From: a virus
Strand: one strand, 5' to 3'
Length of the DNA stretch: 33,865 bases
Virus record (IMG/VR): IMGVR_UViG_3300025706_000015
The notes beneath the pieces are model-generated. The model made no database searches. It was not told the origin of the DNA and saw only the letters and a list, made by a program, of their open reading frames with translations. Numbering within the stretch: position 1 is the stretch's first letter; each line of letters begins with the position of its first letter. This document shows positions 1-33,865 of this stretch, piece by piece. A program made the position numbers and the translations under genes.

Positions 1-127
1 CTGCGTCGCGCTTAATCATTGCTATAGCGTCGTCCGCTGCCTTTGCGCTGCCCAATAGCGTAATAAACCCTGCGCGGCTAGCCTCAAGGTCGCCTGCTAT
101 CTTTGCGCCTGCGCCAACAAAAGTAGC
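1..127. repeat. Terminal direct repeat copy 1 (identical to 33739..33865); circular-contig overlap
   Basis: The 127 nt ctgcgtcgcgcttaatcatt...gccaacaaaagtagc occur exactly at both window ends. The tape measure ORF reads through the junction in frame. Confidence 0.95.
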
Positions 128-271
128 TGCCGCTGCGCCTGCTATTGCAAGGCCTGTGGCAAATTGCTTACTCGCGTCTGCTGTACGCGCTGCATGGTCG
201 CGTACGCCGTCCAAAACCTTACTGGCCTCGTCCTTTGCGGTAATAAGTATTTTTATTAGGTTATCGTTCAT
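1..271 (-). CDS. Tape measure protein, N-terminal segment (gene wraps the circular junction and continues in 31745..33865)
   Basis: ATG at 271..269 (MNDNLIKILITAKDEASKVLDGVRDHAARTADASKQF...). After removing the 127-nt duplicate, the joined ORF is 2265 nt (755 codons) and in frame with 31745..33793. Confidence 0.8.
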   Translation of the reverse strand, partial: MNDNLIKILITAKDEASKVLDGVRDHAARTADASKQFATGLAIAGAAAATFVGAGAKIAGDLEASRAGFITLLGSAKAADDAIAMIKRDA

Positions 272-276
272 AGGCG

Positions 277-914
277 TTAATCTGGTTCAACGGTTTGGCC
301 TTTTGTTCTTGTTCGTTGTTCCTCGTAGGCCGCCTCTTGTTTCCTATTATTTATCTTATCACGCTTATTATCGGCCGCCCATACTGCAATAGCAAACTCT
401 ACTTCGTCCATAGGTTCTTGTTCCATTGCAACTGCACTAAGGTTAAACTTTTCGCGGTATCTAAAGTGCGCTAGCTTTTCCTTAATGTCGTTGTATTCTG
501 GGTCTGGTATCGTTTTGCCGTCGCCAACTGTTAGCGTCCCTGGTAGGTTTTGTACTATCAGGTCGTTTAGTTGGCTTTTGGTTTTGGGCTTACGCTGCCC
601 GCCCCCATTGCGGCGCTAATAAAGGCGTTCATAACCTCAAGCGGCAATTCGGTAACGTTGTCTTTGGTCATAGGTTCAGTACGTGCATTGTCAATAGTGC
701 CGTCGTCGCTTACAAGCCATGCGCCACTAACAAAGTGGTCTTTAATCATGTCTGCAAACGTGTCAATTCCCTGTTCCTCGTTCTCTTTAAGCTGCTTAAT
801 GGCCTGCGCCTCTGCGTAGGTAAATGGGCGGTAACTAATAAAGTGTTCGTCTGTCCACCCGTCCATTAAATGTTCAAAGCTAAAGCGCTTAGTACTTACT
901 ACTGGTTTACTCAT
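277..914 (-). CDS. Tail assembly chaperone, -1 frameshift product (GT-like)
   Basis: The -1 frame is open from the slippery CCCAAAA (582..588) to TAA at 277..279, just upstream of the tape measure ATG. This is the classic G/GT arrangement. Confidence 0.6.
567..914 (-). CDS. Tail assembly chaperone (G-like)
   Basis: 115-aa acidic ORF between the major tail and tape measure genes. SD-like AAAGGAACAACG lies 7 nt upstream of the ATG. Confidence 0.75.
   Translation of the reverse strand: MSKPVVSTKRFSFEHLMDGWTDEHFISYRPFTYAEAQAIKQLKENEEQGIDTFADMIKDHFVSGAWLVSDDGTIDNARTEPMTKDNVTELPLEVMNAFISAAMGAGSVSPKPKAN
582..588 (-). promoter_or_regulatory. -1 programmed frameshift slippery heptamer C CCA AAA
   Basis: X XXY YYZ heptamer in the zero frame, 4 codons before the stop of 567..914. 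The -1 frame continues for about 100 codons. Confidence 0.6.
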
Positions 915-942
915 ATCGTTACGTTGTTCCTTTCGTTATTTT

Positions 943-4799: not shown

Positions 4800-5897
4800 C
4801 TATTTTACGCCTGTAAGCTTGGCAAATGCCTCTGGTAGTACAACTGCGCCGTCTGTGTAGTGAATAACACGTACGCTAGTTTTACTTCGCTTAAAGTCGT
4901 CGCCCTCTGTACCAAAGTCTACACGAATACCGCCGCCGTCAGTAATAACGTACTTGCTGTAGTCGCCGTACCATACTTCGGTTTCGTTCGTACCCGCGCC
5001 CAGGTTAGTTGGGATATTTGGGTCGTAAGCTACTGGTCGGCCTTTAATCTTGTCAGTGTCGCCGTCAAAGTTGTTAAGCAATGGGCGGTTCTGGCTGTCT
5101 TTAAGTCCGTCAAGCAAGCCACCAACGCTGTCGGCTGCAAAAAACGTACCGTTAGCGCGGTATGCACGTGGCAATGCGCGGTAAAGGTTCATTACGTCGC
5201 CGTAAGCAAAGGCTGCGCCTGCTTGGGCTTTAACGTTTGCGCCTGGCAATGTTGCTGTGCGGTAGCCCTTTGGCTTACCTACGCCGTCGCCGTTTGTAAA
5301 GGCTGCGTCCTCAAGTACCTGAATAGCGTAAGCAAACTGGTCTACAACCATTTTACGAATATCAGGGTTGCTAACTGTTTGTGTAAGTACTTCGTCAGTA
5401 AACTTACCAAAGCCAACTGCCTTTTTAGGCTGCAACGTAACGGTTGCCCATTGTGCTGCGCTAAGGGTTGCTGTGTCGCCCTCGGCTACCCAGTAAGCTT
5501 GTACAAGCGCGTCCTCTGCGCCTAGCTTAATCTGGCCAACAACGTTATTAAGCACTGTAGCGTACTTACGTATTTCGCTAGTAGCGTTCAGTTTCTTAAT
5601 AATGGTGCTTTCAACGGTAAGAGGTACTAACCAACCACCCTCGTTAGCGGTTACTGTGTCCTGGCCTGTAAGGTCGGCTGCTTTGCGGCTTTCCACAATT
5701 TCTTTTTCTACTGCGTCAAGTTCGCTAGCGTTCTTAGCTGCAAATGCCTTAAACCATTTTGTTTCAAGGTCTGCTGCGGCTTTCTTAGCTTGTGGGTTTT
5801 TACCACCCTCTGCGCCTGCTGGCACAAAGCCTTTTGCTTTTGCTGCGCGGGCTTGTTCAACTGCCTCTGCAACAATTTCACTCATTTTCTTTTTCAC
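4800..5897 (-). CDS. Major capsid protein, HK97 fold
   Basis: 365 aa with an N-terminal delta-like coiled region, then typical HK97-family sequence (..GGWLVP.., ..KPKGY.., ..VWYGDYSKYVI..). It follows the prohead protease. Confidence 0.9.
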   Translation of the reverse strand: MKKKMSEIVAEAVEQARAAKAKGFVPAGAEGGKNPQAKKAAADLETKWFKAFAAKNASELDAVEKEIVESRKAADLTGQDTVTANEGGWLVPLTVESTIIKKLNATSEIRKYATVLNNVVGQIKLGAEDALVQAYWVAEGDTATLSAAQWATVTLQPKKAVGFGKFTDEVLTQTVSNPDIRKMVVDQFAYAIQVLEDAAFTNGDGVGKPKGYRTATLPGANVKAQAGAAFAYGDVMNLYRALPRAYRANGTFFAADSVGGLLDGLKDSQNRPLLNNFDGDTDKIKGRPVAYDPNIPTNLGAGTNETEVWYGDYSKYVITDGGGIRVDFGTEGDDFKRSKTSVRVIHYTDGAVVLPEAFAKLTGVK

Positions 5898-7478: not shown

Positions 7479-7814
7479 TGCGCTGTAGCCCGTACTCGTA
7501 ATGATATTAAAGTAAAGCGGCTGTAATGCCTTACTTAATTGTTCGGCGTACTCGTCAAAGTTGGCAAAACCAAATAACTTGCTAGGGTCTACGTCTTTAC
7601 GCTTAAGCGCCTTTTGTACTCGCTGCGTGTCCAGTTCTGCTAATAAGGCCTGTTTCTGCTGTTCAAATATGGCGCGGGCTTTAGCAATAAACTGCTGTTC
7701 AAATGCTGCGCCGCGTTCAATGTAGGCCTTGTGCTTGGCCTCGCCGTATTCCTCTAGCCAATCGGCGGGTACGTTAGTTTTTTTTTTGCGCCTGTGGCGC
7801 TGCTTGGCAAACTC
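7479..7814 (-). other. Start-less in-frame upstream extension of the MuF-like ORF
   Basis: 112 sense codons (EFAKQRHRRKKKTNVPADWLEEYGEAKHKAYIERG...) with no canonical start. They are in the -1 frame relative to the portal and overlap its last 20 codons. Confidence 0.6.
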
Positions 7815-9049
7815 TTACCGCTGCCGTCTGCTGCTGGCGGTGTTAGGTTTACTTGGCCTGCCATTTCAATAGGTACGCGGTTAGCCTCAATGTAAAGTAC
7901 CTTGCCCTGGTCGCCTGGTAATGGGTCTAGGCCGTATAGTTCGCGTACTTCGTCAATCGTAGCCCAGTTGTTTACGCTAGCCTCTGCTGCTTTAAGCTTG
8001 GCCTCTACGTCCTCTGGTACTATCGGGTCAGTATAAAACTCTAGGCTGCGGTCTACGGTGTCTACTAATCGGGTGTTAAGCAATTCTAGGTACTGTTCAA
8101 CGCGTGGCTTAACTGCGTACTTAGCAAGGTTGTACTCGCTTGCGTCCATATTGCTGCGGTTTGCCTGGTCTGTGTCGCCTAGCATTGCGCCGCTTACAAA
8201 GAAAAATGCCAGTATTTCTTTACGGGTAAATTGCTGGCTGGCCAAAAAGTCCATTTCCTTTTGGGTAAGCATAAATGGCTTAAGGGTCGCGCCCTCTAAA
8301 ATAATAGGCTTGTGTGCGTTTTCCGTTCCAGTAAAGCTATCGTTAAAACTCTGCTTAAGGCGTTCAAATGCCTTGTCGCTAAGTTCGCCCTTAGTTTCAA
8401 CCGTAACGCTAGGCCTTGCGCTGTTGGCAAAAAAGCGGCGGTTGTATTCTTTGGCCTGGCTGTCAGTATCAAGCGTTGCTGCGGCTGCGGCTACTACGCC
8501 ACGCCCTCTGTATGGGTTCTCTGGGTCTGGGTTAATGTCGCGTAATACCTCAAAGACTGTGTACGGCTTGTTATTGTACTTTACTACGCTGTCGCCCCAA
8601 CTGCCCTTTAGTTCAAACTCGGTGTTTTGTGCGGGTAGTACGTGCAGTGCGCGTGGCACTTTCTTTTGGTCAGGGTCGTACATTAACTCGTACGCCTCGC
8701 CTATCATGTTCATGTAGGTAAAGTGCAGTTTACGTAATTGCTTGCCCGTTAAAAAGTCGCTTGGCTTTTCTATCAGGTCTAATAGTGGGTGGTCGGTTAC
8801 GTCCTCGTATTTGCCGTCGCTTTTCCTGCGGCGCAATTTAATAGGTATGCCTGCTGCGGCAATCGTAATAATTTCGTTAGCCTGCCATACTGCGCCAATG
8901 TTAGCCCTAAGCTGGGCTGCCTTGCTGCCGTATCGGTTAATGCTTGCGCCACCAATAAAGTTGCCGCTGCTAGGCAATGCTGGTATGTAGTCCTTTTTGC
9001 CCGTTGGCTGGCCTTGTAATGCTTTTACTGCGTTCTGTATTCTACCCAT
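7754..9049 (-). CDS. Portal protein (HK97-type)
   Basis: 431-aa ORF immediately downstream of the large terminase. Size and sequence character fit the Phage_portal family. Confidence 0.9.
   Translation of the reverse strand: MGRIQNAVKALQGQPTGKKDYIPALPSSGNFIGGASINRYGSKAAQLRANIGAVWQANEIITIAAAGIPIKLRRRKSDGKYEDVTDHPLLDLIEKPSDFLTGKQLRKLHFTYMNMIGEAYELMYDPDQKKVPRALHVLPAQNTEFELKGSWGDSVVKYNNKPYTVFEVLRDINPDPENPYRGRGVVAAAAATLDTDSQAKEYNRRFFANSARPSVTVETKGELSDKAFERLKQSFNDSFTGTENAHKPIILEGATLKPFMLTQKEMDFLASQQFTRKEILAFFFVSGAMLGDTDQANRSNMDASEYNLAKYAVKPRVEQYLELLNTRLVDTVDRSLEFYTDPIVPEDVEAKLKAAEASVNNWATIDEVRELYGLDPLPGDQGKVLYIEANRVPIEMAGQVNLTPPAADGSGKSLPSSATGAKKKLTYPPIG
7778..7787 (-). promoter_or_regulatory. A10 homopolymer (T10 on + strand): candidate -1 ribosomal or transcriptional slippage site joining portal and MuF frames
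   Basis: Portal frame reads GCA AAA AAA AAA CTA; the MuF frame reads CGC AAA AAA AAA ACT. Confidence 0.45.
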
Positions 9050-12939: not shown

Positions 12940-13275
12940 CTAAAATGGTATCTCGCTTAAGTCTATAGGCTGGTCGTCGTTTAAGCTGTCGTTAGTATGG
13001 CCGCCCTGGTTCATGTCGTCCGCTGCGGTTGCCTGGTCGTCTGGCGTAACGTCGCGGCGGTTATCTTTGCGTCCGTTCTCGCGGTCTTTGTCAATAGGAA
13101 AAACAGAGGCGTAGCCGTCCCATGCGCCAATAGGTATGCTGTTTAGCTTAATGCTGGTGCGCTTTTTACCGTCTTTTTCGGTAACAATAATAACGCCAAT
13201 GTTCTGCCAACGGGTCTTTGTTTCGCCGTTGCTTTCGTATTCCTGCGGTACGGTTATGTTGTGGGTAGCTGGCAT
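12940..13275 (-). CDS. Small ssDNA-binding-like protein with SSB-type acidic C-terminal tip
   Basis: The C-terminus ...DDQPIDLSEIPF mimics the SSB DDDIPF tail. The N-terminal ~65 aa are beta-rich and preceded by a disordered acidic linker. Confidence 0.5.
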   Translation of the reverse strand: MPATHNITVPQEYESNGETKTRWQNIGVIIVTEKDGKKRTSIKLNSIPIGAWDGYASVFPIDKDRENGRKDNRRDVTPDDQATAADDMNQGGHTNDSLNDDQPIDLSEIPF

Positions 13276-13801: not shown

Positions 13802-14125
13802 TTATGGTTCTATTTCGTCAAAGGCTACCCATAAAGTGCTGCGTAATTTCTCATGCGCGTTGCTGCCCTGGTTGCTGCATATCGTTAGGTTTACGTGGCC
13901 AGGGTCATACTGTACGCCAATATGCCCGTCTGCCAATAAAATAGCCCCACTAAAGCCCTGGGGGTATAGTTCATGTTTCACACTGCCAACTACAGTAAGG
14001 CCTGGTAGGTTCGCTAAAATAACGTTCCAAACCTGTAGCCCTGTAATCTGTTTATCAAAGTCAAAGTCTAAGCCGTCCGCAATTATCTGCGTAGTATTAA
14101 CTGTAGCGCGGCCGTTGTTCCCCAT
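13802..14125 (-). CDS. S-adenosylmethionine decarboxylase-like protein lacking the Glu-Ser processing site
   Basis: ..HELYPQGFSGAILLADGHIGVQYDPGHVNLTICSNQG.. parallels the AdoMetDC core F.P.G.SGvvllaESHlsIHTWPE...D.FTCG, but has DG in place of ES. Confidence 0.45.
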   Translation of the reverse strand: MGNNGRATVNTTQIIADGLDFDFDKQITGLQVWNVILANLPGLTVVGSVKHELYPQGFSGAILLADGHIGVQYDPGHVNLTICSNQGSNAHEKLRSTLWVAFDEIEP

Positions 14126-14696
14126 GTACCTTATTGTACTTTTGTTTAAATAATTCTGCTATAGGCTTTTTGCTGGCGTATTTGTCCGTCGCCTTTGTCA
14201 TAATCGTTACTACCCAGTCTGCCTTTTGCAGTGTCTTAAGCGGCAATGCGTAGCCCTGCATTTTGCCAAACTCGCCACCCGCTATAGGTTTCTGTCCTTT
14301 GGCGTATAGGTTGCGGCAAGCCTCGCGTAATTTCTCAAAGTCCATTACATAAATAAACTCGCTAAGTTGCCCCGTCGCTTTCCAGCCGCCGTTTATGGTC
14401 GCCCACTTTTCCACCACAAATACAAAGTATTTAGCCTGGCTGTGCTTTAGGGTATCTATCTCAACAAACACGTTGCCCGTTTTGCCGTACAATTTATCGT
14501 ACTTAACCTCTACCCATGTCTGGCAATGGCCACAAAACATATCGCCGCGCGGTTCGTAGCCCTCGCTATGTACGTACCAACACTCGCGGTTAAGCCGCCC
14601 AAATACTGTTAGTACTAATTCCTCTGCTGGTATCGCGTCTGCCAGGTCGTTAGTAAAGTTGCTGGCTGCGCGTTCCTCTGGCGTATACACCCCCAT
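14097..14696 (-). CDS. Hypothetical protein
   Basis: 199 aa. GGAACAACGA lies 3 nt upstream of the ATG. Contains CGHC and ..WVEVKYD... Confidence 0.8.
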   Translation of the reverse strand: MGVYTPEERAASNFTNDLADAIPAEELVLTVFGRLNRECWYVHSEGYEPRGDMFCGHCQTWVEVKYDKLYGKTGNVFVEIDTLKHSQAKYFVFVVEKWATINGGWKATGQLSEFIYVMDFEKLREACRNLYAKGQKPIAGGEFGKMQGYALPLKTLQKADWVVTIMTKATDKYASKKPIAELFKQKYNKVHGEQRPRYS

Positions 14697-16215: not shown

Positions 16216-16674
16216 TTAAGCCCAAACAATCTTATATTTTTCGTCGTACTTGCCGCCGTTAAACTTGTCGCAACACTTGCCGCAAGCAATGGCCGTACGG
16301 CGGTGGCGCTTAATCACGCGCTTGCAGTTCGGGCATTGCCCCGTTACCTTTTTATCTGGCGTAACCGTACTGGCCGCGCTGTAGTATGTCTGGCCGTCGC
16401 CGCCTATGCTGCGGCAAATAGCTTTCCATACTGCGCTATGGTGTGCCTTACGTCCTGCTAGGGCGTGGGCAATCTCATGTAGCAGTATCGTACGTACTTT
16501 GGTTTCGTCGTTCAGGCTGGTAAGCGTGTGGCTTAGGGTTATGCGCTTAGTGTTGTAGTGGCAAGCGCCAAAACGTCGTACTGCGTTGTCGTAGCTAAAC
16601 GTCCAACCTTTAGCCTTAAGGCCATGTTCGGCCATAAGTTCGTTTGCTATTTTTTGTGCTGCGGCTAGGTGCAT
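16216..16674 (-). CDS. SprT-like zinc metalloprotease with C-terminal zinc ribbon
   Basis: ..ILLHEIAHAL.. HExxH motif plus CPNCKR...CGKCC. GGAACAACGA lies 3 nt upstream of the ATG. Confidence 0.75.
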   Translation of the reverse strand: MHLAAAQKIANELMAEHGLKAKGWTFSYDNAVRRFGACHYNTKRITLSHTLTSLNDETKVRTILLHEIAHALAGRKAHHSAVWKAICRSIGGDGQTYYSAASTVTPDKKVTGQCPNCKRVIKRHRRTAIACGKCCDKFNGGKYDEKYKIVWA

Positions 16675-18739: not shown

Positions 18740-19351
18740 CTAAAGGTCAATGCTGTTAAATGTGCCGTTGTCGCGGCGCTGGTTGTCCTGCAAATACCAC
18801 TCGTATTGCTGTATAAACTCGCTTGCGTATGTCCGTATAAACTCTATGCCCCTTTCTCGCTGTTCAGGCGTTAAGTGTATGCGCGCTACGGTCAGTTGGT
18901 CTATAAATGGGTGCTTTACGCGGTACTCAAATAGTTCTGCCTCTGGTACAAGTACTTTGTAAACGCTGTGCTGGTAACTGCCAGTGTAAACGGTCGCGCT
19001 GCTGGTGCTTAGTTTCCAGTCGCGTAGCGTTGGCATATCAACGGCGTTAGGTTCGTAGTTGTCGTACACGCCCACAAACTCTACTATGTTGTCGCCTAGC
19101 TTAAACCGCTTAACTAGCTTTTTCTCTACCGTCCAACCGTCTGTAAGTTCCTGGCCGCCTAGCATTTCTGGTATTTTGCCTGTGGCTAGTATCTGCTTTT
19201 CCCAAAGCGCGTGGTACTTTTTGCCTAGTTCCATTGCTGGGGTGGCGGGCAATCGTACGCGGTTAAACATATTTATTGCCTCGTCAATGTACCCTAGCCT
19301 TACCTTGTCCAAAATACTAAAGCTTAGGCGGTAAACTTTAGCGGCCGCCAT
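18740..19351 (-). CDS. PD-(D/E)XK family nuclease (putative recombination exonuclease)
   Basis: ..FVGVYD....LRDWKLS....YQHSVY.. gives a D / D-x-K / QxxxY pattern. It lies adjacent to the annealase gene. Confidence 0.5.
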   Translation of the reverse strand: MAAAKVYRLSFSILDKVRLGYIDEAINMFNRVRLPATPAMELGKKYHALWEKQILATGKIPEMLGGQELTDGWTVEKKLVKRFKLGDNIVEFVGVYDNYEPNAVDMPTLRDWKLSTSSATVYTGSYQHSVYKVLVPEAELFEYRVKHPFIDQLTVARIHLTPEQRERGIEFIRTYASEFIQQYEWYLQDNQRRDNGTFNSIDL

Positions 19352-19770
19352 TACTCTACAACCTTTATGGCCATGCGGTATTTACGGTTGGCTGGCACTA
19401 CGTCTGCTGGCAATTCGCCGTTAGCCTCTGCGTAAGCCTCAATGGCTTTGCTGTTCAGTCGTAGCGTAACACTCTTGCTTACAAAGTCCTCTGCAATGTT
19501 AGCAATCTCTACGCCGTCTTTTGGCGCGTATACGCTGCCTGTTAGGCTGCGCGTAATCTTAATCTTATTGCCTACAATGCTGGTAACTGCTGGGTTGTTA
19601 TCGTTAATAACTGCCTGCAAGTTTGCCTGCGCCAGTCCCATAGCCTCTGCTAATTCGGCCTGGTATTGTACTAATAGTTTTAGGTGCTTTTCCGCGCCAG
19701 GCTTAAAGTAAAAGTTACCTGCCTCGTCTACGGCTACTTTAATTTTGTCGGTGTCAATCGTTACTATCAT
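19351..19770 (-). CDS. Hypothetical protein
   Basis: 139-aa ORF between the annealase and the nuclease. Confidence 0.75.
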   Translation of the reverse strand: MIVTIDTDKIKVAVDEAGNFYFKPGAEKHLKLLVQYQAELAEAMGLAQANLQAVINDNNPAVTSIVGNKIKITRSLTGSVYAPKDGVEIANIAEDFVSKSVTLRLNSKAIEAYAEANGELPADVVPANRKYRMAIKVVE

Positions 19771-19771
19771 G

Positions 19772-20386
19772 CTATTTAAGTTCCTCTAGTTCGTTATCAA
19801 CTGCTGCTGCTGCGTCCTCGTACTTTTTATCTTTAGCTGTTTTGTCGTCCGCCTCGTCTGGGTTCTTTTCGTAAAATGCCAATTCGCGGTACTCGTCTGC
19901 TGCGTAAACGTCGCGGCCAATACCTAAGTCGCTGGCACACTTTTTAAGCGCGTCAGTAGTAGCGGCCTTTAGGTCGTTACCAAAGTCCAGTGCCTTAGTT
20001 TTATCTGCCTTAAGTCGCTTAATGTCTGCGCGTCCAAACTGTTCACGTACCAGGGTCGTTACAATCTTGCCGTCGCCGTCGCGTACATTGCCAGTTAATC
20101 GGCCGTACACAATCGCCTGGTCGCCCTTAACATCAAAGCTTTTTACCTCAAAGTTCCAGTCGTAGCCAAAAAAGCGGTCTAGCTGGCTTTTAACGTATGC
20201 GCCAGTAATAAACTTAAAGCGCCCGCCGCCTTTGCCTGGCTTTTCGTGTACGTGCTGCGCTGGCGTACGTTTGTATAGTAGGTTCATGTGCTTAGTATCT
20301 AGCACGTTAAAGCCTACGGTCGCTGCGCGCTTTGGCACAACAATACGGCTGTCCGTATTCTCGTTGTTGTTGTCGTTGTTATTCAA
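19772..20386 (-). CDS. Rad52/Sak-like single-strand annealing protein
   Basis: ..RFKFITGAYV..LDRFFGYDWNFEV....GNDLKAATTDALKKCASDLGIGRDVY.. is Rad52-like. The start is set at TTG 20386 because AAAGGAACAACGACC precedes it; the track's 20548 start runs through two terminator hairpins. Confidence 0.65.
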   Translation of the reverse strand: MNNNDNNNENTDSRIVVPKRAATVGFNVLDTKHMNLLYKRTPAQHVHEKPGKGGGRFKFITGAYVKSQLDRFFGYDWNFEVKSFDVKGDQAIVYGRLTGNVRDGDGKIVTTLVREQFGRADIKRLKADKTKALDFGNDLKAATTDALKKCASDLGIGRDVYAADEYRELAFYEKNPDEADDKTAKDKKYEDAAAAVDNELEELK

Positions 20387-20503
20387 GGTCGTTGTTCCTT
20401 TCGTTGTTACTATCGTAGTACTATTTTTGCTTATGCTGGCCACAAAGTCAATACATTTTTGCAACTTTTTTCTATACCCCTGTGCATAACAGTTTGCTAT
20501 ACT

Positions 20504-20542
20504 AAAAATGGCCGCTATGGTTTCGTTGTTCCAATAGCGGCC
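20504..20542 (-). terminator. Rho-independent terminator (second of a tandem pair)
   Basis: Sense GGCCGCTAT-(15-nt loop containing GGAACAACGAA)-ATAGCGGCC followed by ATTTTT. Confidence 0.55.
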
Positions 20543-20546
20543 AACC

Positions 20547-20579
20547 AAAAAGCACTACATAAGTTCAGTAGTGCTTTTT
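20547..20579 (-). terminator. Rho-independent terminator, bidirectional shape
   Basis: AAAAAGCACTAC-9 nt-GTAGTGCTTTTT: a 12-bp stem flanked by A and T runs, 15 nt after the stop of 20594..21133. Confidence 0.75.
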
Positions 20580-22322: not shown

Positions 22323-22329
22323 CAAAATC

Positions 22330-22430: not shown

Positions 22431-22465
22431 AAGAAAAAGCCCCGCGCAATGTGGGGCTTTTTTAT
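22431..22465 (-). terminator. Rho-independent terminator, bidirectional shape
   Basis: AGCCCC-GCGCAATGT-GGGGCT flanked by A and T runs, downstream of 22584..22799. Confidence 0.7.
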
Positions 22466-22583
22466 TACCAGAGGCTAGCTGTTGTTCTACCATGCCGTCG
22501 CTTGTAGTGTCATAATTTTACGCTTGGTTTTTGTTTTGTAAGGGTTCGTTGTTCCTTACTGTTTATATAATAGCACAAGCGCT

Positions 22584-22799
22584 TTAATTTGTCAATACTT
22601 CCCAAAAGCCACCGTTGTTGTAGTGGTCGCAAACCTTGCGCCCCTCGGCTGTCATTTCGCCCACGTATATTTTGCATTGCCAGGTGTACGCTGCTTTCAT
22701 TGTCAGGTAACTATAGGCCACCACGTAATAAAGCACTACGGCTAGTATCGCGGCAATTAAGGTTAGTATTATGCGTTTTAGTATCGTTGTTTTACTCAT
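22584..22799 (-). CDS. Small single-pass membrane protein
   Basis: MSKTTILKRIILTLIAAILAVVLYYVVAY... The ATG at 22799 is preferred over the track's TTG at 22844, which overlaps the upstream gene. Confidence 0.65.
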   Translation of the reverse strand: MSKTTILKRIILTLIAAILAVVLYYVVAYSYLTMKAAYTWQCKIYVGEMTAEGRKVCDHYNNGGFWEVLTN

Positions 22800-22819
22800 A
22801 GCCCATTTATAGCATAGTG

Positions 22820-23059
22820 CTATTGCTTTGGGCAATCGTCGCAAGGTTTTGGCGTAAACGCCGTCTGTATGTGGCCAGGTAGGTTGGCACTCATAAAGCC
22901 TAGTACATTGAAAAACTTAGCCTCGCCGTCCTGGGTCTGCACAATAGCGCCCGCTGCGTTAATGGCTTGTGCAATGCCCTCTTTGTATAATTCCTCAATC
23001 TGCGCTAGGTTCATTGTGTCTAGCATAACGTCTTTTGTAAGTGGTTTATTCTGTTCCAT
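22820..23059 (-). CDS. Hypothetical early protein
   Basis: 79-aa ORF; the first ORF after the large non-coding region. Confidence 0.7.
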   Translation of the reverse strand: MEQNKPLTKDVMLDTMNLAQIEELYKEGIAQAINAAGAIVQTQDGEAKFFNVLGFMSANLPGHIQTAFTPKPCDDCPKQ

Positions 23060-23480
23060 GTATTTATAATACCCCCGCCGCCAATCACTGCATATAGTAG
23101 TTTGTTACTTGTAAAAATTACCACGCCTAATAGCCTGGGCGTTTTTTCGTGTTCCGCTACCAGGCTACCTACCATAATGCACACTACCTGCATATCATGC
23201 GGTCAGTGCGCGCCTTGTGGGGTTGCCTTAATTAAGCGGTTGTTCCAACGTTCAATTTAAAGCCCTTGTTCTATCGTCTGGCCAAATATCATAATAAGGC
23301 CGTCCGTTATTCTAAGTTCCCCTATTTGTTAAAGTACTCATAATGCTATGCAGTGCAGTGGGCGTATAACAGGCCATACGCCTAGCCAATGTACTACTTG
23401 TGGCCGCTGGGGCTTGCGGTGTGTGCCAGGTTCTTTAAAGCGCCCTGGTGGGTAGTAGTAACCCTGCCTACGCTGTCAAA

Positions 23481-23502
23481 CAAAAATACCCCTTGCGGGG
23501 TA
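23481..23502 (-). terminator. Rho-independent terminator (GCAA tetraloop)
   Basis: Sense TACCCC-GCAA-GGGGTA followed by TTTTTG. Confidence 0.65.
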
Positions 23503-23622
23503 AGTCTGTATAAGTATCTGGTTATCACTAATCTATTTAAGAATAGCAAATAGCCCACTACTTTACAAGTGTTTACCCTCGCTTTTTTGCTACGGGCAAA
23601 ATGATTAGTAATAACCTGTAGC
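23481..23622 (-). ncRNA. Candidate structured small RNA (~140 nt)
   Basis: Extended -10 TGCTATGAT (23629..23637). A 14-bp long-range stem pairs 23603..23616 with 23520..23533 (one G-U). An internal TTTTGC-CCGTA-GCAAAA hairpin is present, and the unit ends at the 23481..23502 terminator. Confidence 0.4.
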
Positions 23623-23628
23623 TTTCTT

Positions 23629-23637
23629 ATCATAGCA
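23629..23637 (-). promoter_or_regulatory. Extended -10 promoter element TGC-TATGAT
   Basis: Lies directly after the U-tract of the late-operon terminator. Confidence 0.35.
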
Positions 23638-23638
23638 C

Positions 23639-23670
23639 AAAACAAAACCGCCCCACAATATGCAAGGCGG
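23639..23670 (-). terminator. Rho-independent terminator ending the structural/lysis operon
   Basis: Sense CCGCC-13 nt-GGCGG followed by TTTTGTTTT, about 105 nt after the stop of 23777..24010. Confidence 0.55.
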
Positions 23671-23776
23671 CTGTTGGTACTCGTTCTGTGTACAATCTGT
23701 TTAAAAGTTCCCCGTACACACCCAGGCTACCGCTGGCACGTACCCATTAGTACGCTTTTCCACAATATAACAACTG

Positions 23777-24010
23777 CTAAAAAGGTACAACGCCGTTGGC
23801 TGTAGTTGCGTCGCTTTCGTGTACGTATTTGTCCCAGGCTTTACCAATCGCTGTAAGCGCTGCGCCTGCTACTGCTGCCCAAATAGGGTCAAGTAGTCCA
23901 ATTAGTACTGTAGCGCCTGCCAGGGCTGCGCTAACGGCCGCAATAAACACAATGCGGGCAAACTCAAGTGCTGCCTTTTTAAATGCTGCTGGGTCTTTTA
24001 CTAATGCCAT
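23777..24010 (-). CDS. Holin-like membrane protein (2 TM)
   Basis: 77 aa. ..IVFIAAVSAALAGATVLIGLL.. and ..IWAAVAGAALTAIG.., with a charged C-terminus. It lies in the lysis cassette after the endolysin. Confidence 0.55.
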   Translation of the reverse strand: MALVKDPAAFKKAALEFARIVFIAAVSAALAGATVLIGLLDPIWAAVAGAALTAIGKAWDKYVHESDATTANGVVPF

Positions 24011-24021
24011 ATTCTACCTTT

Positions 24022-24243
24022 CTAAAGCCCTAAAGCTTTCTTATTCTTATAGTCTACCATGCTAATTACGTTGCTAGGTTCGGGTACAGTCGGTACTATA
24101 CCGCGTAACGCTGCATGGCCTATGGCCTCGTCAAGGTCGCGTTCCGCGTGGTATAGCCGTTCTGTAAAGTAATCTACCGTTTCAATAAGTTGCTGGTCGC
24201 TTAACTTATCGTAATCGCCGCTGCCTACTAACTCGCCCGCCAT
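24022..24243 (-). CDS. Hypothetical acidic protein in the lysis cassette
   Basis: 73-aa ORF. Confidence 0.7.
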   Translation of the reverse strand: MAGELVGSGDYDKLSDQQLIETVDYFTERLYHAERDLDEAIGHAALRGIVPTVPEPSNVISMVDYKNKKALGL

Positions 24244-24247
24244 AGCA

Positions 24248-25351
24248 CTAACTTACAAAAATTGTGTTACCTGCGTAAATCAGGTTAGGGTTAGCAATTC
24301 CATTTAGGCGCTGCAATGTCGCAACGTCTGTACCAAACTTGGCTGCAATACCGCTTAAGCTGTCGCCGCTAACAATCTTGTATGTTTTGCGCTGCGCTGG
24401 TGCTGGGGCTGCGCCAGTTACCTTAAGCTTTTGGCCAACTCGTATAAGGTTAGGGTTTGCAATGCCGTTAATAGCTGCAAGCGTCTGGTAGTTCGTACCG
24501 TATCGCTGTGCAATCGCGCTTAACGTGTCGCCTGGCTGTACGGTGTATTCGCCCTGTGCTGCTGGCGCTGGTGCGCTGCCGCTAAGTTGCAATACCTGGC
24601 CTACGTTAATTAGGTTAGGGTTAGCAATACCGTTTGCTGCTACAAGCGCCGCAACGGTCATGCCGTATCGCGCTGCAATGCCGCTTAATGTATCGCCGCT
24701 GCGTACAGTGTACGTGCCTTGCGCTGGTGCTGGCTGGCTAGGTGTAGGTACACTTGGCGCAATGCTGCCTGCCTTGCTTACCTGGCCGTAGTTGTCCAGG
24801 CTAGTACGGTTGTAATCTACCGCGCCGTTAAGGTTCTGGCCGTTCAAGTACTGGTAAAGGTGTATACCCTCTTGTACGCGCCCTCTACTCCAGGCGTATG
24901 TTTGCCAAAACCATTTAGCTGTGCCGCTAGCCATAGTGCGCTGCATTACGTCTGCGCTACCATAAATACCTACGCGTTCGCGGCCAATTACACTGGCTGC
25001 GCCGTTCAAAAAGTCGTCAATCGCTGCCTGGTCGCGTGGCTGTGCGTCAAAGTCTGCCGCAAAGTATACTACGCTTTTCGCTGGTAGCCCTAAGCGGTTA
25101 ATTTCGCGCTGTGCGTCTGCGGCTTGCGCCTTACCAACTTGCGCGCCACCCATAACGGTATTAGCGCCTGCTTGGTATACAAGTACAATTTCCAAACCAT
25201 TGTTTACTAGGTCTGCTAATTCTGCTGCGTCCAGGCCTTTACCGCCCTCGCCGTCAGGCCATAAGTAACGTACCACAAACTGTTTGCCTGCGTTTTTAAT
25301 GTTTCGTCCGCCAGGCCTCGCCCAACTATAGTCAATTCCCTCTGTTGCCAT
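24248..25351 (-). CDS. Endolysin: glycoside-hydrolase TIM-barrel domain (GH25-superfamily / DUF1906-like) plus three LysM repeats
   Basis: N-terminal ..[20 protein letters not shown]...GLEIVLVYQ... C-terminal 3x YxVxxGDxLSxIAxxxG....L...[13 protein letters not shown].L separated by AP-rich linkers. Confidence 0.85.
24254..24712 (-). repeat. Three tandem LysM-coding repeats (domain repeats within the endolysin gene)
   Basis: Residues ~214-256, 269-311 and 324-366 share GIANPNLI and GDTLS cores. Confidence 0.8.
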
Positions 25352-25391
25352 AACTTGCGTTATTCCTTTCCTTAGTTATTGCCTTACAACA

Positions 25392-26237
25392 TTATTGTAC
25401 TACAAAGTTGTTACTACGTAGTACCTGGGCTATCGCCGTCTTAGCGTCGCCAACTGTTGCTGTAATGCGTAATTCTAGCCTACACTCGCCGTAAATACCC
25501 TCTGGTACGGTAACGGTTTTGTTCACGCTGTCTTTTTCGCCTGCTGTCGTCCGTCCACTGTAACTGTCAATAAAATAATCTTTGCTGCCGCAAACTAGGT
25601 GGCGTTCCGTAATTCCAAAGTAATCTACCCCCGCTGTGCCTTTAAATGCGTACTCAAGGTTATTGCCAGGGCTGTATATAGCCTTGCCGTCAATCGTCCC
25701 GTCTGTTTCTAATACCGTTAGGCTGTAGTCGCCGTAAATGTTCTCTGGGGTGCTAACCGTAAATGCGTTCGTTTCAAAGGTGGCCGTTTTCTCTACGCCA
25801 AATGGTAGCGTAACGCGGGCTGTATAAAATATCTTGTAATCGCCTGGGGCGGTTGGCTTGGTCGCTACCTCGCGGCTAACACACCCGCTACCCTCTGGTA
25901 TTGTGCTAGTTACCTGGTATTGCTGCGTATATACGGGCGGTTCTACCTTACGTACTTGTGCGTCAATTACTACTGGGTACGTTCCGTTACTCATGCGGCA
26001 ATAGTCAAGCACTGGGGTTTTGCCTAGTTCTACGTTGCTTACGTGCGCTGGGCTTTTGTAACTAAAAAAGTAGTTACCAGGTAGCAAGTTAAAGTATAAA
26101 AACTGGCCGCCAATCAGTAGGCCAGTGCTTACCGTACTCCAAAATACAATGCTAGGTAGGCGGCTAATAATATAGTTCATGCCACTTTTACTAAATGCCA
26201 GGCGTGTTTGTGTATACAATTTCTTTATTCTGTCCAT
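25392..26237 (-). CDS. Membrane-anchored beta-rich protein of unknown function
   Basis: 281 aa with an N-terminal TM ..IVFWSTVSTGLLIGGQFLYF... Confidence 0.75.
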   Translation of the reverse strand: MDRIKKLYTQTRLAFSKSGMNYIISRLPSIVFWSTVSTGLLIGGQFLYFNLLPGNYFFSYKSPAHVSNVELGKTPVLDYCRMSNGTYPVVIDAQVRKVEPPVYTQQYQVTSTIPEGSGCVSREVATKPTAPGDYKIFYTARVTLPFGVEKTATFETNAFTVSTPENIYGDYSLTVLETDGTIDGKAIYSPGNNLEYAFKGTAGVDYFGITERHLVCGSKDYFIDSYSGRTTAGEKDSVNKTVTVPEGIYGECRLELRITATVGDAKTAIAQVLRSNNFVVQ

Positions 26238-26241
26238 AGCA

Positions 26242-26487
26242 TTAGCCTCGCCTCTTAAAGTAGTCGCGTATATCCTCTGGGCTTAGTCCAATCACAATAC
26301 CCATAAGTATACCTAAAACCCATACTGGGTAATCAAATGTAGGTATAGTAGCGTCAAATACAAACAACGTTATAGCGCCTACCAAACAAACCACCCTAAA
26401 AAAGGTAGTTGCTGCCTTTGGTTCGGGCTGTTTACGTACTGGTTGTTTTGGTATACGTTTTACGTCAGTTTTTCTTTTGGCCACCAT
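26242..26487 (-). CDS. Small membrane protein (2 TM)
   Basis: 81 aa: a basic N-terminus followed by two hydrophobic segments. Confidence 0.7.
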   Translation of the reverse strand: MVAKRKTDVKRIPKQPVRKQPEPKAATTFFRVVCLVGAITLFVFDATIPTFDYPVWVLGILMGIVIGLSPEDIRDYFKRRG

Positions 26488-26593
26488 GTGTAATGTCTTT
26501 CAGTCTAAAATCAAGCTTATGTATAGCGCCGCGTAGTAGCCAACCTGCCACTATGCCAAACTCAATGCCTAGTATAAACTCCATTATTTCCAT
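26465..26593 (-). CDS. Possible 42-aa membrane peptide (not in the ORF track)
   Basis: MEIMEFILGIEFGIVAGWLLRGAIHKLDFRLKDITHGGQKKN. AAAGGAA lies upstream. It overlaps the next gene by 23 nt. Confidence 0.35.
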   Translation of the reverse strand: MEIMEFILGIEFGIVAGWLLRGAIHKLDFRLKDITHGGQKKN

Positions 26594-26658
26594 AATTCCT
26601 TTTGTTGCGCCGCTATAGCTTTCTACATTACTTATGTTAGCATATTCCCTATTTAAGC

Positions 26659-27006
26659 TTAACCCTCTTGTTCAATACTTGCTGCGTTATATTTCACAAG
26701 TTCTGTACGCGCCTCGTCGGGCAAATAATTGCCACAAATAAAGCAACGGTAAGGGTCTACGTTATCCACCATGCCGCAATACTGGCAATTACTACAATTA
26801 GGGCAAGTAGTAAACCATTGCCCGCCTGCTGTCGCGCCACACCATACACACTTATTTACGGCGCAAACCTTGTGCTGCGCGTCCATAAGCTTTGCCTCAA
26901 ACTCTGGCTGCTTTTCTGGGTTAATAACCTTTTCCCTGCGCTTGCGGCCAGGGTTCGGGGCAATTACCGTATTCCCTGGGTAGTATATACTAAGTCCATT
27001 TTCCAT
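26659..27006 (-). CDS. Cys-rich (multi zinc-ribbon-like) protein
   Basis: 115 aa with 13 Cys arranged as CxxxxC, CxxC, CxxCxxCxxC and CxxC. Confidence 0.7.
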   Translation of the reverse strand: MENGLSIYYPGNTVIAPNPGRKRREKVINPEKQPEFEAKLMDAQHKVCAVNKCVWCGATAGGQWFTTCPNCSNCQYCGMVDNVDPYRCFICGNYLPDEARTELVKYNAASIEQEG

Positions 27007-27422
27007 ATTTCTATTGTAGCAATCTGGCTTAAATATGTTGGGTGCAAAATGCCTATGCCCACAAAGCCCTGGGCTGCTAGGCTAGCGTCATTTATAATTA
27101 ACTGTTTAATAATCTGTGTCAGGTCGGCCGTAAAATCTATGCGGCGGTTTGCGTCTGCGGTCAGGTTAAGCGGTTTCATTAGCGGCTGGTTAAAGTCGTC
27201 CGTACTAAATTGCCTTGTACCTATACCTATAATTTTCTGGTTGCCTACTGGTTCGCTGGCATGAAAAACAATACGTATATGCGCCCATAGGTTTTTAATC
27301 TCTAGTAGGTTACTTGGCAAGTTAAAGTTAAGCGTTGCGCCTGCGCCACAATCGCGGGCGTTTTGCAGTGCAATGGTTTTGTACTGGTATCTGTATTCCT
27401 GGTGTCTACTTTCTGCGCCCAT
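26964..27422 (-). CDS. Hypothetical structural protein
   Basis: 152-aa ORF in the distal tail cluster. Confidence 0.75.
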   Translation of the reverse strand: MGAESRHQEYRYQYKTIALQNARDCGAGATLNFNLPSNLLEIKNLWAHIRIVFHASEPVGNQKIIGIGTRQFSTDDFNQPLMKPLNLTADANRRIDFTADLTQIIKQLIINDASLAAQGFVGIGILHPTYLSQIATIEIWKMDLVYTTQGIR

Positions 27423-31385: not shown

Positions 31386-31387
31386 TG

Positions 31388-31741
31388 CTATATTTCCTCA
31401 ATCACACAATTAGCGTCTACTAATTTGCTAGTACCTACGCTGTACGGTGTGCTTGCATTAAAAGTAGGTAGCCCCGTAAAGTTAAACGTTCCGCCTGGTT
31501 TGTTCGTAAAATCGTTAGCATAGGCCACTGCTGCGCCCGTATTAAGTAATGCTAACAATGCCTGGTAATCGGCAATGCTTAAGCGCGTCCATTTTAGCTG
31601 GGCGCGTTTCTTTTGTCCTGCGCGGGTGCGCTGCTTGCCGCCGTTAATTGCTACAAGCGTAGTTTCGTAGTTTACGTAGTCCTCAACAAGCCCGTCTGCG
31701 TCAGGTAGTTTAATTGCTGTTGCGTTAATCGTTAGTGCCAT
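31388..31741 (-). CDS. Minor tail protein (distal tail protein position)
   Basis: 117-aa ORF immediately after the tape measure stop. Confidence 0.7.
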   Translation of the reverse strand: MALTINATAIKLPDADGLVEDYVNYETTLVAINGGKQRTRAGQKKRAQLKWTRLSIADYQALLALLNTGAAVAYANDFTNKPGGTFNFTGLPTFNASTPYSVGTSKLVDANCVIEEI

Positions 31742-31744
31742 AGT

Positions 31745-33865
31745 TTACCCTCTTAAAGCCCCTATTTGTGTCATGTCCAGGCCTTGCGCCCGTAGTGCGT
31801 CGCGTATCTGCTTTGCCATGTCTACTGCGTCGCCCTGGGTAAACTGGCCGCGCCCCTCGTATTTAATCGTAAGGTTAAAGTCGCCGCCGCCGTTACCGCC
31901 TGGTGCGTTCGCTAGCATACTCTGGGTGTTTCGGTTGCTAACAACCTCTGCGCCCGCTGGTAGCCAAACGTTTTCTTTACCGTTCTCGCCCACCGTAGCC
32001 CAACCGCCCTGCGTTACCTGGCCACCTGTATACAATCGTGGCAATGTTCCTAGCTGCGGTACGCCTGGTAGCTTGCCCGCCGTATTGTTAATGCCGCGTA
32101 TAAAGTCGTTAATCTTGTCAATAACCCAGTTCAAGGCGCTTTTAATTCCGTTTGTAATGCCGTCAAATACGCCGCTTACGCCGTTCCTAATGCCGTTGGC
32201 AATGTTGCTAATAAAGCCGCTAATGCGTCCCCACATACCAGAGAAAAAGCCAACTACGCCGTCAATGGCTGCGCCAAAGGCGTTACGTATGTTATTTATA
32301 ATCGGGCTAATAAAGCCCCATATTGCACTAAACACGCTTACCGCTACATTGCGTACGTTATTAAATACGTTGCCAATAAAGTTGCCTACGGTCTGTATGC
32401 CGCTGCCTATCGCGTCAAATATCGGGCTAATTTTCGCCCAAATTGCGTCCCATACCACTATTACAATGCCGCGTATAACGGCAAACACGTAGCTAAATAT
32501 ACTCATAATTATATTTATGCCTGTACTAACCACGTTAAACCAGAATTGAAAATACCCTACCAAAAAGTTAATTACTGGCTGGGCTACTGCCATTACCGCG
32601 TTAAATGCGCCCGTAAGCACTGTGCCAATCAGGTTGGCCACCCAGGTAATCGCGCCCACAATTCCCTGCCATGCGCTAATCATAAAGTTTACATACCCTG
32701 TAAATACCTGTATCAGTACGTTAATCACGTTCACAAGTAGCCATACCGCCCCAACTACTACGCCGCCAATAATTGCGCCAATCACTTGTAGCGCTGGCAA
32801 TAGCACTGGGCTTAAAAAGTTCCATAGTCGCTGCAACGTCGGTAATAGGTTTGTGGTTATGGTATTCCAAAGCGCCTCAAAGCTAGGCCGCAAAAACTCA
32901 ATGGCCTTTTTAACTACGTCTATGCCCGTTGCAAGTGCGCCCTTTAAAAAGTTGCCCACGTTCGTTAGCACTGGCTGTATAGCTTTCATTACGTTACCCC
33001 AACCGCCCATGCTTTCTACAAGCTTTTGTATTCCTAGTGCCACAAGTGCGCCTGCTGCCATAAATGGTAGCAATGGTGCTAATGTTGCCCAAACGCTTGC
33101 CGCAAGGCTAGCAAAGGCTGGTACAAGCGCGCCCAGTATCACGCCTGCAATAACGGGTGCGTTGTCGCCTATCCACTTAAACATTGTCTGTATGCCCGCT
33201 ACAATGCTGTCTTTGTTCGCGCTTATCCAGTCGCCTACGCTTTTCATAGCGTTTTTAATAATTTCAAACATACCGCTTTTAGTTACAATATCTGCCATTG
33301 CAATAGTTACGGTGTCCTGTAGGTTCGCCCAAATCTGGTTAAACCCGCCTGCCTGGTTAGCAAATGCGTCTGCAAAACGGCCGCCCGCTGCGCCCGCCTG
33401 GTTAAACATTTGTTCAAGCATACTAAACGTTACGCCGCCGCCGCTAATAAAGTCCTCTAGCGCCTGCCCTGTCTTGCCCGTTGCCTGGCTTAACATCTCA
33501 AAAATAGGTATACCTGCAAAGGCAAACTGGCGTACGTCCATCATGGTTGCCCGCCCAGTCGCGCCAATCTGCTGCAAGTTCACAATAATGCGGTCTAGTT
33601 CAGGTTGTCCTTTGCCCATTGCCGTAAGTGCTTTACCTACGTTCATAAGTAGGTTTTCACTCTGGCCTGCATTTTTCGTAACGCTGGTAAGTAACTGGTT
33701 GGCCGCAATCAGGCCTGGTAGTTCAAATGGTGTGTTAGCTGCGTCGCGCTTAATCATTGCTATAGCGTCGTCCGCTGCCTTTGCGCTGCCCAATAGCGTA
33801 ATAAACCCTGCGCGGCTAGCCTCAAGGTCGCCTGCTATCTTTGCGCCTGCGCCAACAAAAGTAGC
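31745..33865 (-). CDS. Tape measure protein (main part; N-terminus continues at 271..128 across the circular junction)
   Basis: ..AMIKRDAANTPFELPGLIAANQLL...MDVRQFAFAGIPIFEML.. is a tape-measure core. A long run of hydrophobic G/A/V/I repeats follows. There is no stop between 33793 and the window end. Confidence 0.9.
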   Translation of the reverse strand, partial: ATFVGAGAKIAGDLEASRAGFITLLGSAKAADDAIAMIKRDAANTPFELPGLIAANQLLTSVTKNAGQSENLLMNVGKALTAMGKGQPELDRIIVNLQQIGATGRATMMDVRQFAFAGIPIFEMLSQATGKTGQALEDFISGGGVTFSMLEQMFNQAGAAGGRFADAFANQAGGFNQIWANLQDTVTIAMADIVTKSGMFEIIKNAMKSVGDWISANKDSIVAGIQTMFKWIGDNAPVIAGVILGALVPAFASLAASVWATLAPLLPFMAAGALVALGIQKLVESMGGWGNVMKAIQPVLTNVGNFLKGALATGIDVVKKAIEFLRPSFEALWNTITTNLLPTLQRLWNFLSPVLLPALQVIGAIIGGVVVGAVWLLVNVINVLIQVFTGYVNFMISAWQGIVGAITWVANLIGTVLTGAFNAVMAVAQPVINFLVGYFQFWFNVVSTGINIIMSIFSYVFAVIRGIVIVVWDAIWAKISPIFDAIGSGIQTVGNFIGNVFNNVRNVAVSVFSAIWGFISPIINNIRNAFGAAIDGVVGFFSGMWGRISGFISNIANGIRNGVSGVFDGITNGIKSALNWVIDKINDFIRGINNTAGKLPGVPQLGTLPRLYTGGQVTQGGWATVGENGKENVWLPAGAEVVSNRNTQSMLANAPGGNGGGDFNLTIKYEGRGQFTQGDAVDMAKQIRDALRAQGLDMTQIGALRG
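33739..33865. repeat. Terminal direct repeat copy 2 (identical to 1..127)
   Basis: Exact 127-nt duplicate of the window start. Confidence 0.95.

Follow-up and report, generated by a model that had tools for sequence, protein, structure and literature searches.

We examined a 33,865-nt stretch of DNA, IMG/VR virus record IMGVR_UViG_3300025706_000015 (the window), which carries a phage genome whose coding strand is almost free of the dinucleotide TC. The genome is circularly closed at ~33,738 bp, with the tape-measure gene spanning the junction. Its gene set includes a tape measure, tail proteins, an endolysin, a Rad52-like protein, TerL, an HK97-type portal, a prohead protease, a major capsid protein (MCP) and a tail tube. 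The phage is small, tailed and siphovirus-like. Scans for tRNA genes and Rfam families were empty. The features on which the argument depends are:

1..33865: whole phage genome, all genes co-oriented on the - strand, TC near-absent from the coding strand
33739..33865, no strand: terminal direct repeat of 127 nt, an exact copy of 1-127 (assembly overlap)
4800..5897, - strand: MCP (Phage_capsid family match)
7754..9049, - strand: portal, the clade marker (family match)
14097..14696, - strand: 199-aa early protein, candidate nuclease (D52...E63-V-K65 motif, predicted restriction endonuclease-like fold)
22596..23776, - strand: largest non-coding or poorly coding stretch, between the lysis and early genes, TC-poor
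24248..25351, - strand: endolysin, an Rv2525c-like glycosidase with 3 LysM, containing 0 TC (family matches)

On the + strand GA occurs 38 times, where ~1,528 copies (1,527.6) are expected from the base composition of the 33,865 nt counted (odds 0.025). TC on the same strand is present in 1,964 copies (odds 0.71). Since GA on the + strand reads as TC on the coding (-) strand, TC is almost lacking from the coding strand, and UC from every mRNA. The first GA is at 1013, and there are none in 16714-21643 or in 23603-27263. Counted in 500-nt windows, the exclusion is uniform from end to end, and no flipped segment was seen. All NNTC contexts have been cleared from the coding strand. The original prediction, made from the letters alone, had reported the 38 GA with these gaps, some 2,000 copies of TC on the + strand, and all credible genes on the - strand. 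An exact recount gives the same number at agreeing positions, and every family-supported open reading frame (ORF) is indeed on the - strand.

The depletion is found in each of the three codon phases. Coding-strand TC is present 9 times against 261 expected at codon positions 1-2 (odds 0.03), 9 times against 799 at positions 2-3 (odds 0.01), and 17 times against 399 at the 3-1 codon junctions (odds 0.04). In intergenic DNA there are 3 against 118 expected, with 2 against 36 in the non-coding 23060-23776 and 3 against 53 in 22596-23646. When synonymous codons were shuffled genome-wide, with proteins and codon usage held constant, 336±14 T|C junctions were generated (minimum 300 in 300 shuffles), compared with 14 observed, which excludes chance. 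TC exclusion is thus a dinucleotide rule acting on the nucleic acid and not a codon rule. The depletion in all phases, in intergenic DNA and against the shuffle rules out codon-usage or translational bias, and the 38 GA against 1,964 TC on the + strand rule out symmetric Type II restriction avoidance of TC. As a side effect the palindromes GATC, TCGA, GANTC, GAATTC and 12 other GA-containing ones each have a count of 0, and antisense ORFs lack Asp and Glu. The dinucleotide rule, the two sites in 23060-23776 and these side effects had all been called correctly beforehand.

The second strand has a milder trend of its own. Where one codon meets the next, the coding strand has 466 G|A (TC on the other strand), fewer than the 670±15 that synonymous shuffling gives, and NGA codons have odds of 0.20-0.25 compared with 0.40-0.96 in outgroup phages. 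The second strand may be under a weaker pressure against TC, although several outgroups share part of the trend.

The proteins are encoded around the missing dinucleotide. Serine is encoded by AGY 494 times and by TCN 9 times. The codon TTC is used 6 times, ATC 2 times, GTC once and CTC never, close to the earlier claim that GTC and CTC are unused and in keeping with the preference for AGY serine and TTT phenylalanine that it also named. Codons also depend on their neighbors. After a T-ending codon leucine is TTR rather than CTN at 66:1, compared with 165:490 elsewhere, and arginine is AGR rather than CGN at 22:2, compared with 46:370 elsewhere. At T|C junctions it is the T that is swapped out and the C that is kept. 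Because phenylalanine has only the codons TTT and TTC, the dipeptides Phe-Gln, Phe-His and Phe-Pro cannot be written without TC. Six of these are present where shuffling within proteins gives 32.6±5.3 (minimum 16 in 2,000 shuffles), a five-fold depletion, and the reverse dipeptides and Tyr-Gln/His/Pro are present at normal frequency. The depletion is seen in every genome of the clade described below and is weaker or absent in most outgroups, although two of the seven (L007 and L023) are likewise below expectation. Serine content is 4.2-5.3% in the clade compared with 5.7-8.8% in the outgroups, and in alignments outgroup TCN serines become AGC or AGT in the clade wherever serine is retained. 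Serine recoding, neighbor-dependent leucine and arginine codons and dipeptide depletion together show that selection, not drift alone, keeps TC out and alters the proteins. The original prediction had argued for selection over simple mutational bias on the serine codons, and it is borne out.

Could a mutational process nevertheless have left this footprint? TC-preferring cytosine deaminases act on single-stranded DNA (ssDNA), and one of the APOBEC or DddA/SsdA-like kind would turn TC to TT until mutation and selection balanced. TT is the most over-represented coding-strand dinucleotide (odds 1.65-1.79 in the clade and 1.65 in this genome) and TTT is enriched too, NTT codons partly replace NTC codons, and among 387 polarised synonymous changes C>T is the most frequent (94; counts not normalised for base content). 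Yet T is the rarest coding-strand base (20%), valine and leucine favor A-ending over T-ending codons (GTA over GTT), and the clade keeps a synonymous TTC in its portal gene. Selection is needed for the change from TCN to AGY, for the loss of T and not C at the codon junctions, and for the scarcity of the Phe dipeptides. The known viral case is also different in degree. TC depletion in human DNA viruses is put down to the TC-preferring ssDNA deaminase APOBEC3; those depletions are mild and are not confined to one strand genome-wide, whereas here the depletion is ~40-fold and single-stranded, with serine recoding and dipeptide loss, for neither of which we know an APOBEC3-linked case. We consider a mutational origin improbable.

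The trait is shared by relatives. Portal homologues form a tight group of 68-94% identity from genomes of 32-34 kb, followed by a gap to 48% and below. The tight group comprises 25 portal clusters drawn from many samples, and every locus examined is TC-free. Coding-strand TC odds are 0.01-0.04 at every one of these loci, despite divergence to ~65% amino-acid identity, and the pooled clade total over 184.6 kb is 226 TC where 8,126 would be expected. In syntenic outgroups the odds are 0.68-1.12. No opposite-strand gene was present in any clade genome examined, and no near-identical DNA was found in INPHARED. Searches for other TC-free lineages, using an accessory MmcB-like gene as a probe in IMG/VR (no relatives) and scans with the Rad52-like and tail proteins, found nothing. 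The exclusion of TC is therefore natural, heritable, old and confined to one clade.

These relatives also dispose of the suggestion that the sequence is a sequencing or assembly error, a misread modified base, or a synthetic recoded genome. The clade loci are independent assemblies from IMG/VR, the Joint Genome Institute (JGI), the European Nucleotide Archive (ENA), Logan and one NCBI metagenome-assembled genome (MAG), with protein differences of 6-35%. The proteins of this genome are intact and match standard families, and AGY at conserved serines is unobtainable by systematic misreading of TC. No observation in favor of artefact or design came to light, and with fifteen or more diverged natural relatives carrying the trait both are refuted, their probability being negligible. 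Confinement to a clade, gene exchange with TC-normal phages and the other banned words described below had not been seen by the earlier reader.

The clade exchanges genes with phages that do not share its rule. Three TC-normal phages (L021, L022 and L048) have endolysins 64-67% identical to that at 24248-25351. In L048 (64% identical) the tail and lysis module is syntenic as well, the early region 12058-21086 is entirely on the opposite strand, and TC is normal on both strands. The contig represented by L046 and L047 (NCBI WBZP01000915) is from an unrelated, TC-normal phage with an endolysin 82% identical to ours. Its endolysin tract (L047:1884-3173, L046:9103-10392) is 1,291 nt with 0 TC where ~60 are expected, and has ordinary TC density on both sides. 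This endolysin cassette was acquired from the TC-free clade, and its composition is enough to recognize it. TC-free and TC-normal phages thus draw on one gene pool and probably overlap in host range. The TC-normal recipient has no need of TC avoidance, so the constraint does not weigh equally on all the phages there: the agent is bound up with the biology of the clade, or other phages evade it differently. L047 has a cytosine-methylase fragment, and the outgroups L007 and L010 have PAPS-reductase/ParB or Vut_1 genes, which we take to be possibly related to DNA modification. A host lead comes from an 8-kb clade contig, wholly phage (L005, JBBSJF010000051.1), that is binned in a 'Candidatus Saccharimonadales' MAG. 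This is a binning-level hint and a weak lead, with which the 44-49% GC of the clade is compatible.

The 38 surviving sites favor the context TTTTCW, and 22 of the 38 are TNTC. TTT|CAx or TTT|CCx junctions, where TC is forced, account for six to eight of them, and several TTC codons interrupt long T runs, so that coding constraints explain the context and it is uninformative for an extended motif such as TNTC or YTCA. In the portal gene the TC of TTT TTC TTT at 8202, which probably serves to interrupt a T9 run, is retained in 8 of 8 clade members compared. A cluster of 9 of the 38 is found in 21570-23645, a ~2-kb region made up of non-coding DNA and small ORFs of low conservation. Surviving TC is densest in the MCP gene, with 6 sites. 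There, isoleucine before a C-starting codon is ATT or ATC 5 times and ATA once, compared with 2 and 85 elsewhere. A single TC would then be about as costly as a single poor codon in the most expressed gene, and the harm would build up over many sites without being lethal at any one.

TC is not the only word that is missing. We surveyed the coding strands of this genome and of L001-L006, L013, L015, L018, L045 and L050-L053 for words that are normal in the outgroups, and found the following (counts seen against expected):

GAGC, coding strand: 0 against 116, and zero in 10 of 10 clade loci
CCGG, palindrome: 0 against 69
GAATG, coding strand: 0 against 21
CTTGG, coding strand: 0 against 25 (complement CCAAG, 29)
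GGAG, coding strand: 7 against 57, avoided even in ribosome-binding sites
GATG, coding strand: 17 against 66
GGAT, coding strand: 15 against 47
GCTG, coding strand: 1 against 63 (complement CAGC, 384)

The ribosome-binding sites are AGGA, GAGG or AGGG, with the canonical GGAG used once only. GAAG is variable in the clade, at 11 against 135 in this genome and 84 against 130 in L018, and the glutamate codon follows its context, GAG before G and GAA before C. The exclusion of GCTG is complete in this genome, L013, L018, L045, L015 and L052 and weaker in L006 and L001. GGNCC (GGGCC, GGCCC, GGACC) is absent from this genome and its closest relative L013 only; GGGCC and GGCCC are normal in other clade members, and GGACC is also absent from L018, L045 and L006. 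The loss of GGNCC looks like strain-level restriction avoidance. In L047 nearly all of the banned words are at normal frequency, except for GGACC (0 against 7) and a mild CCGG deficit. The lineage evolves by motif avoidance in general, apparently without modification genes, which raises the prior for defense-driven avoidance of TC. The other banned words leave the uniform, context-independent loss of a dinucleotide unexplained.

Phage avoidance of restriction sites is the nearest general precedent. The loss of CCGG and GGNCC here is of that kind, immunity through absence of the target. Restriction avoidance, however, concerns duplex sites of 4-8 bp on both strands, and here it is a dinucleotide, on one strand, with ~1,500 sites cleared and proteins altered. 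An asymmetric form of restriction might account for the strand. The EcoP15I sites (CAGCAG) of T7 are reportedly all in one orientation, and Type III restriction is said to need inversely oriented sites; strand asymmetry in our phage would likewise leave single-orientation sites and disarm Type III-like enzymes. As in T7, an asymmetric word is present on one strand only, GCTG being a second strand-specific exclusion (1, against 384 for CAGC), and the clade clearly evolves by avoiding motifs (CCGG, GGNCC, GAGC). Unlike T7, where a 6-bp site has tens of copies, the loss here is of a dinucleotide in every context, which motif-by-motif selection would not produce. GAGC and GGAG have been purged although they were already in a single orientation, and this logic does not require a purge. 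We know of no Type III-like enzyme with a 2-bp recognition site, and regard orientation-dependent restriction as a very improbable cause.

That TC is common on the other strand makes a symmetric reader of duplex DNA unfit, as the original prediction had concluded, and the target must be a single strand. Which one? The same coding-strand sequence is found in the mRNA, in the non-template strand of transcription bubbles and in the displaced or lagging-template strand of replication. By reasoning alone we rejected several other causes: Rho rut sites (CC is not avoided), ultraviolet 6-4 photoproducts (the wrong strand, and TT is enriched), avoidance of protospacer-adjacent motifs (not strand-specific) and primase sites.

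The reading we favor, at a probability of about 0.4, is target avoidance at the level of ssDNA. Strong, long-standing selection would keep TC off the mRNA-sense strand or, equivalently, GA off the template strand. An enzyme would act on TC only in single-stranded nucleic acid, and with one strand regularly exposed, one strand would be cleaned. Exposure would fall on the strand that is displaced, or serves as lagging template, in unidirectional replication, rolling-circle or recombination-driven, running co-directionally with the genes. The enzyme might be a TC-directed ssDNA nuclease, a thymidine ADP-ribosyltransferase or a cytosine deaminase. Each attack would cost little and ~1,500 sites would be ruinous. 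We infer the single-strand logic, the preference for ssDNA and the enzyme class. As to the source of the agent, we lean towards a host defense, and a weapon of the phage itself seems distinctly less likely.

The functions encoded in the early region were counted towards DNA over RNA, namely an ssDNA-binding protein-like function and a Rad52-like one:

12940..13275, - strand: small protein, conserved in the clade, with an acidic C-terminal tail ending DLSEIPF (sequence)
18740..20548, - strand: recombination module (annealase, 139-aa protein, 203-aa protein)
19772-20548, - strand: Rad52/Erf-like annealase (PF04098 Rad52_Rad22, 4e-10)
within 18740..20548, - strand: 203-aa protein with a D...DWK motif (sequence)

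The 203-aa protein may be an exonuclease, judging from its motif. The module points to ssDNA intermediates in replication or recombination. The small protein has no family match in Pfam, PHROGs or NCBIfam; we take its DLSEIPF tail to resemble that of bacterial ssDNA-binding proteins.

Several softer observations bear on the choice between DNA and RNA. The principal alternative is avoidance in RNA, where a UC-directed endoribonuclease or modifier (a host toxin RNase, a HEPN protein, a CmdT-like ADP-ribosyltransferase or a host-shutoff RNase of the phage) would attack single-stranded RNA. All genes being on one strand, all mRNAs are UC-free, leaders and intergenic spacers included, and the untranscribed strand would be constrained by complementarity alone. 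The further coding-strand bans (GGAG even in ribosome-binding sites, GCTG but not CAGC) would fit sequence-specific RNases, and survivors are somewhat denser in the poorly coding 21.6-23.6 kb. There is also a precedent in CmdT of the CmdTAC system, a defense enzyme that is dinucleotide-specific and attacks GA in single-stranded RNA (PMC11618068). CmdT itself is excluded as the agent, its target GA being abundant in these UC-free mRNAs. Most UC sites, however, are in the capsid mRNA. The capsid gene, presumed to be the most expressed, overrides the avoidance, which suggests that the cost per site does not scale with transcripts and softly favors DNA. So does the continuation of the exclusion beyond terminator-like hairpins (at 23672-23646 and 23502-23487; promoter-like sites are at ~23640 and 22595-22567). 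A rule on a DNA strand would moreover forbid opposite-strand genes, in which no Asp or Glu could be encoded, and the clade has none. TC in ssDNA has enzyme precedents, which again mildly favors the ssDNA of replication. A Cas13b has a UC preference, but a UC-specific bacterial RNase was not found in the literature searched, and the same RNase would confront the TC-normal phages with which the clade exchanges genes. We judge attack on RNA unlikely, though a serious contender.

The enzyme precedents for TC in ssDNA are instructive in their differences. DarT2 of the DarTG system ADP-ribosylates thymidine, the third base of TNTC in ssDNA, and blocks replication (PMC5179494, PMC11543638, PMC11825919), and variants read TTT or TCT motifs (PMC7003065). 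Reported phage escape from DarT is through antitoxin-like enzymes (PMC11825919). The DarT2 motifs are of four bases, unlike the exclusion here, which removes TC whatever flanks it, with TT enriched. Every NNTC context is cleared and TNTC with it, the TNTC share of the survivors being for coding reasons. DarT2 of the TTT/TCT type is excluded by the enrichment of TT and TTT, and a variant with a TC core might be the agent. Phages also escape DarT by polymerase mutations; escape by motif loss has not, to our knowledge, been reported.

Might the phage be evading its own enzyme? In this alternative, which cuts across the question of DNA or RNA, the clade would encode a TC-directed single-strand nuclease or modifier to destroy the nucleic acid of hosts or competitors, and would itself escape by lacking the target. 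The logic is supplied by T4 endonuclease IV (DenB), which acts on ssDNA only, cuts 5' of dC with a preference for 5'-TCA-3', and leaves T4's own DNA immune (PMC1635256, PMC2095790). T4 differs in being immune by hydroxymethylcytosine and not by sequence. The trait is restricted to one clade, with syntenic outgroups and endolysin-sharing phages normal, and the TC-free cassette in a TC-normal phage indicates that both kinds circulate in one gene pool. The 199-aa protein at 14097-14696 is the obvious candidate. It is the best-conserved early protein, and close relatives (65-100% identity) are on clade contigs only. D52, E63 and K65 are invariant in the alignment of relatives, and in an AlphaFold2 model (pLDDT 77.8) they are on the adjacent predicted strands 52-55 and 60-67, as a PD-(D/E)XK core needs. 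Foldseek gave weak matches, mostly to restriction endonucleases and resolvases (DpnI, probability 0.90), with none below E = 0.001, and there were no sequence matches in Pfam, NCBIfam or the PDB. On this modelled fold the protein is a candidate PD-(D/E)XK nuclease.

Against this, every locus with the gene is a clade member, so that its association with the trait is wholly inseparable from phylogeny. The structural match is weak, and restriction endonuclease-like folds usually read duplex sites of 4-8 bp. Distant relatives in other phages belong to phrog_13596, a family without assigned function. Homology with DenB was rejected, the hhalign probability being 0.24%, and no phage protein has a PHROG or Pfam match to DenB. 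The avoidance of CCGG and, at strain level, of GGNCC is a host restriction signature, and host pressure on motifs is clearly acting. We therefore think self-immunity unlikely, a shade more so than attack on RNA. The stronger proposal that the phage tells self from non-self by composition, encoding or depending on a TC-specific single-strand enzyme directed against host or rival nucleic acid, we find more doubtful again. If it is true, the phage survives through the absence of the target from its exposed strand, an 'immunity by dinucleotide exclusion' that would force all of its genes onto one strand and reshape its proteome.

Some observations also weigh against ssDNA-level avoidance by a host agent. 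No agent has been identified among the phage proteins: Pfam, PHROGs, NCBIfam and PADLOC gave no deaminase, ADP-ribosyltransferase, macrodomain, methylase, RNase toxin or DarT/DarG among the 40 of them, and the Saccharimonadales MAG is the sole, weak host lead. The clade has no opposite-strand gene by which mRNA, non-template strand and displaced replication strand could be separated. The capsid argument is one gene and an assumed expression level. Read-through of the terminators is possible, and a promoter-like extended -10 comes directly after one, which weakens the terminator argument. The phages that share or exchange endolysins with the clade are TC-normal, and a host agent would need to be evaded differently in them. 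Finally, both the mode and the direction of replication are inferred.

Other genes of the early region and its surroundings are:

11285-11893, - strand: 202-aa protein with a D...E-I-K nuclease-like motif (phrog_631, 1e-41; a 'DNA repair protein' PHROG)
13802-14125, - strand: 107-aa protein, S-adenosylmethionine decarboxylase (AdoMetDC)-like, clade-conserved (PDB 2iii, E = 0.004; TIGR03330, E = 0.002)
16216..16674, - strand: SprT-like zinc metalloprotease, clade-conserved (PF10263, 1.7e-12)

Further clade-core early proteins are encoded at 11890-12237, 16695-17177 and 19351-19770. Of the clade members compared, this genome alone has the gene at 11285-11893, yet that gene is fully TC-free already, which would mean either that the donor pool was TC-free or that amelioration is fast. 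The AdoMetDC-like match of the 107-aa protein was the sole result of PDB profile searches with four core early proteins. In a manual comparison with the SpeD motifs, Asp-Gly appears to take the place of the self-processing Glu-Ser, and the protein may have an S-adenosylmethionine-binding or anti-restriction role. At least six genes have an initiation cassette, (A/G)GGAACAACGA(A/C)C, just 5' of the ATG (starts at 22090, 16674, 16075, 14696, 13728 and 914 on the - strand).

Escape through absence of the target is a known principle. Motif avoidance has been known for symmetric sites of four or more bp, and here it is a two-base word, on one strand, in a whole lineage. Full-text literature searching found no description of such a genome, and the combination of two bases, one strand, ~40-fold depletion, a cost to the proteome and stability in a lineage is new to us. 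The implied enzyme would be dinucleotide-specific on single-stranded DNA or RNA and potent enough to dominate the evolution of a genome, an activity that fits a class recently recognized in bacterial immunity (DarT, CmdT). The phage sequence itself reveals the word that such an enzyme must read, and a TC-specific enzyme acting on ssDNA or RNA would be of interest for base editing and as a nucleic-acid tool. The TC-free signature also traces gene flow, as with the endolysin cassette in a TC-normal phage.

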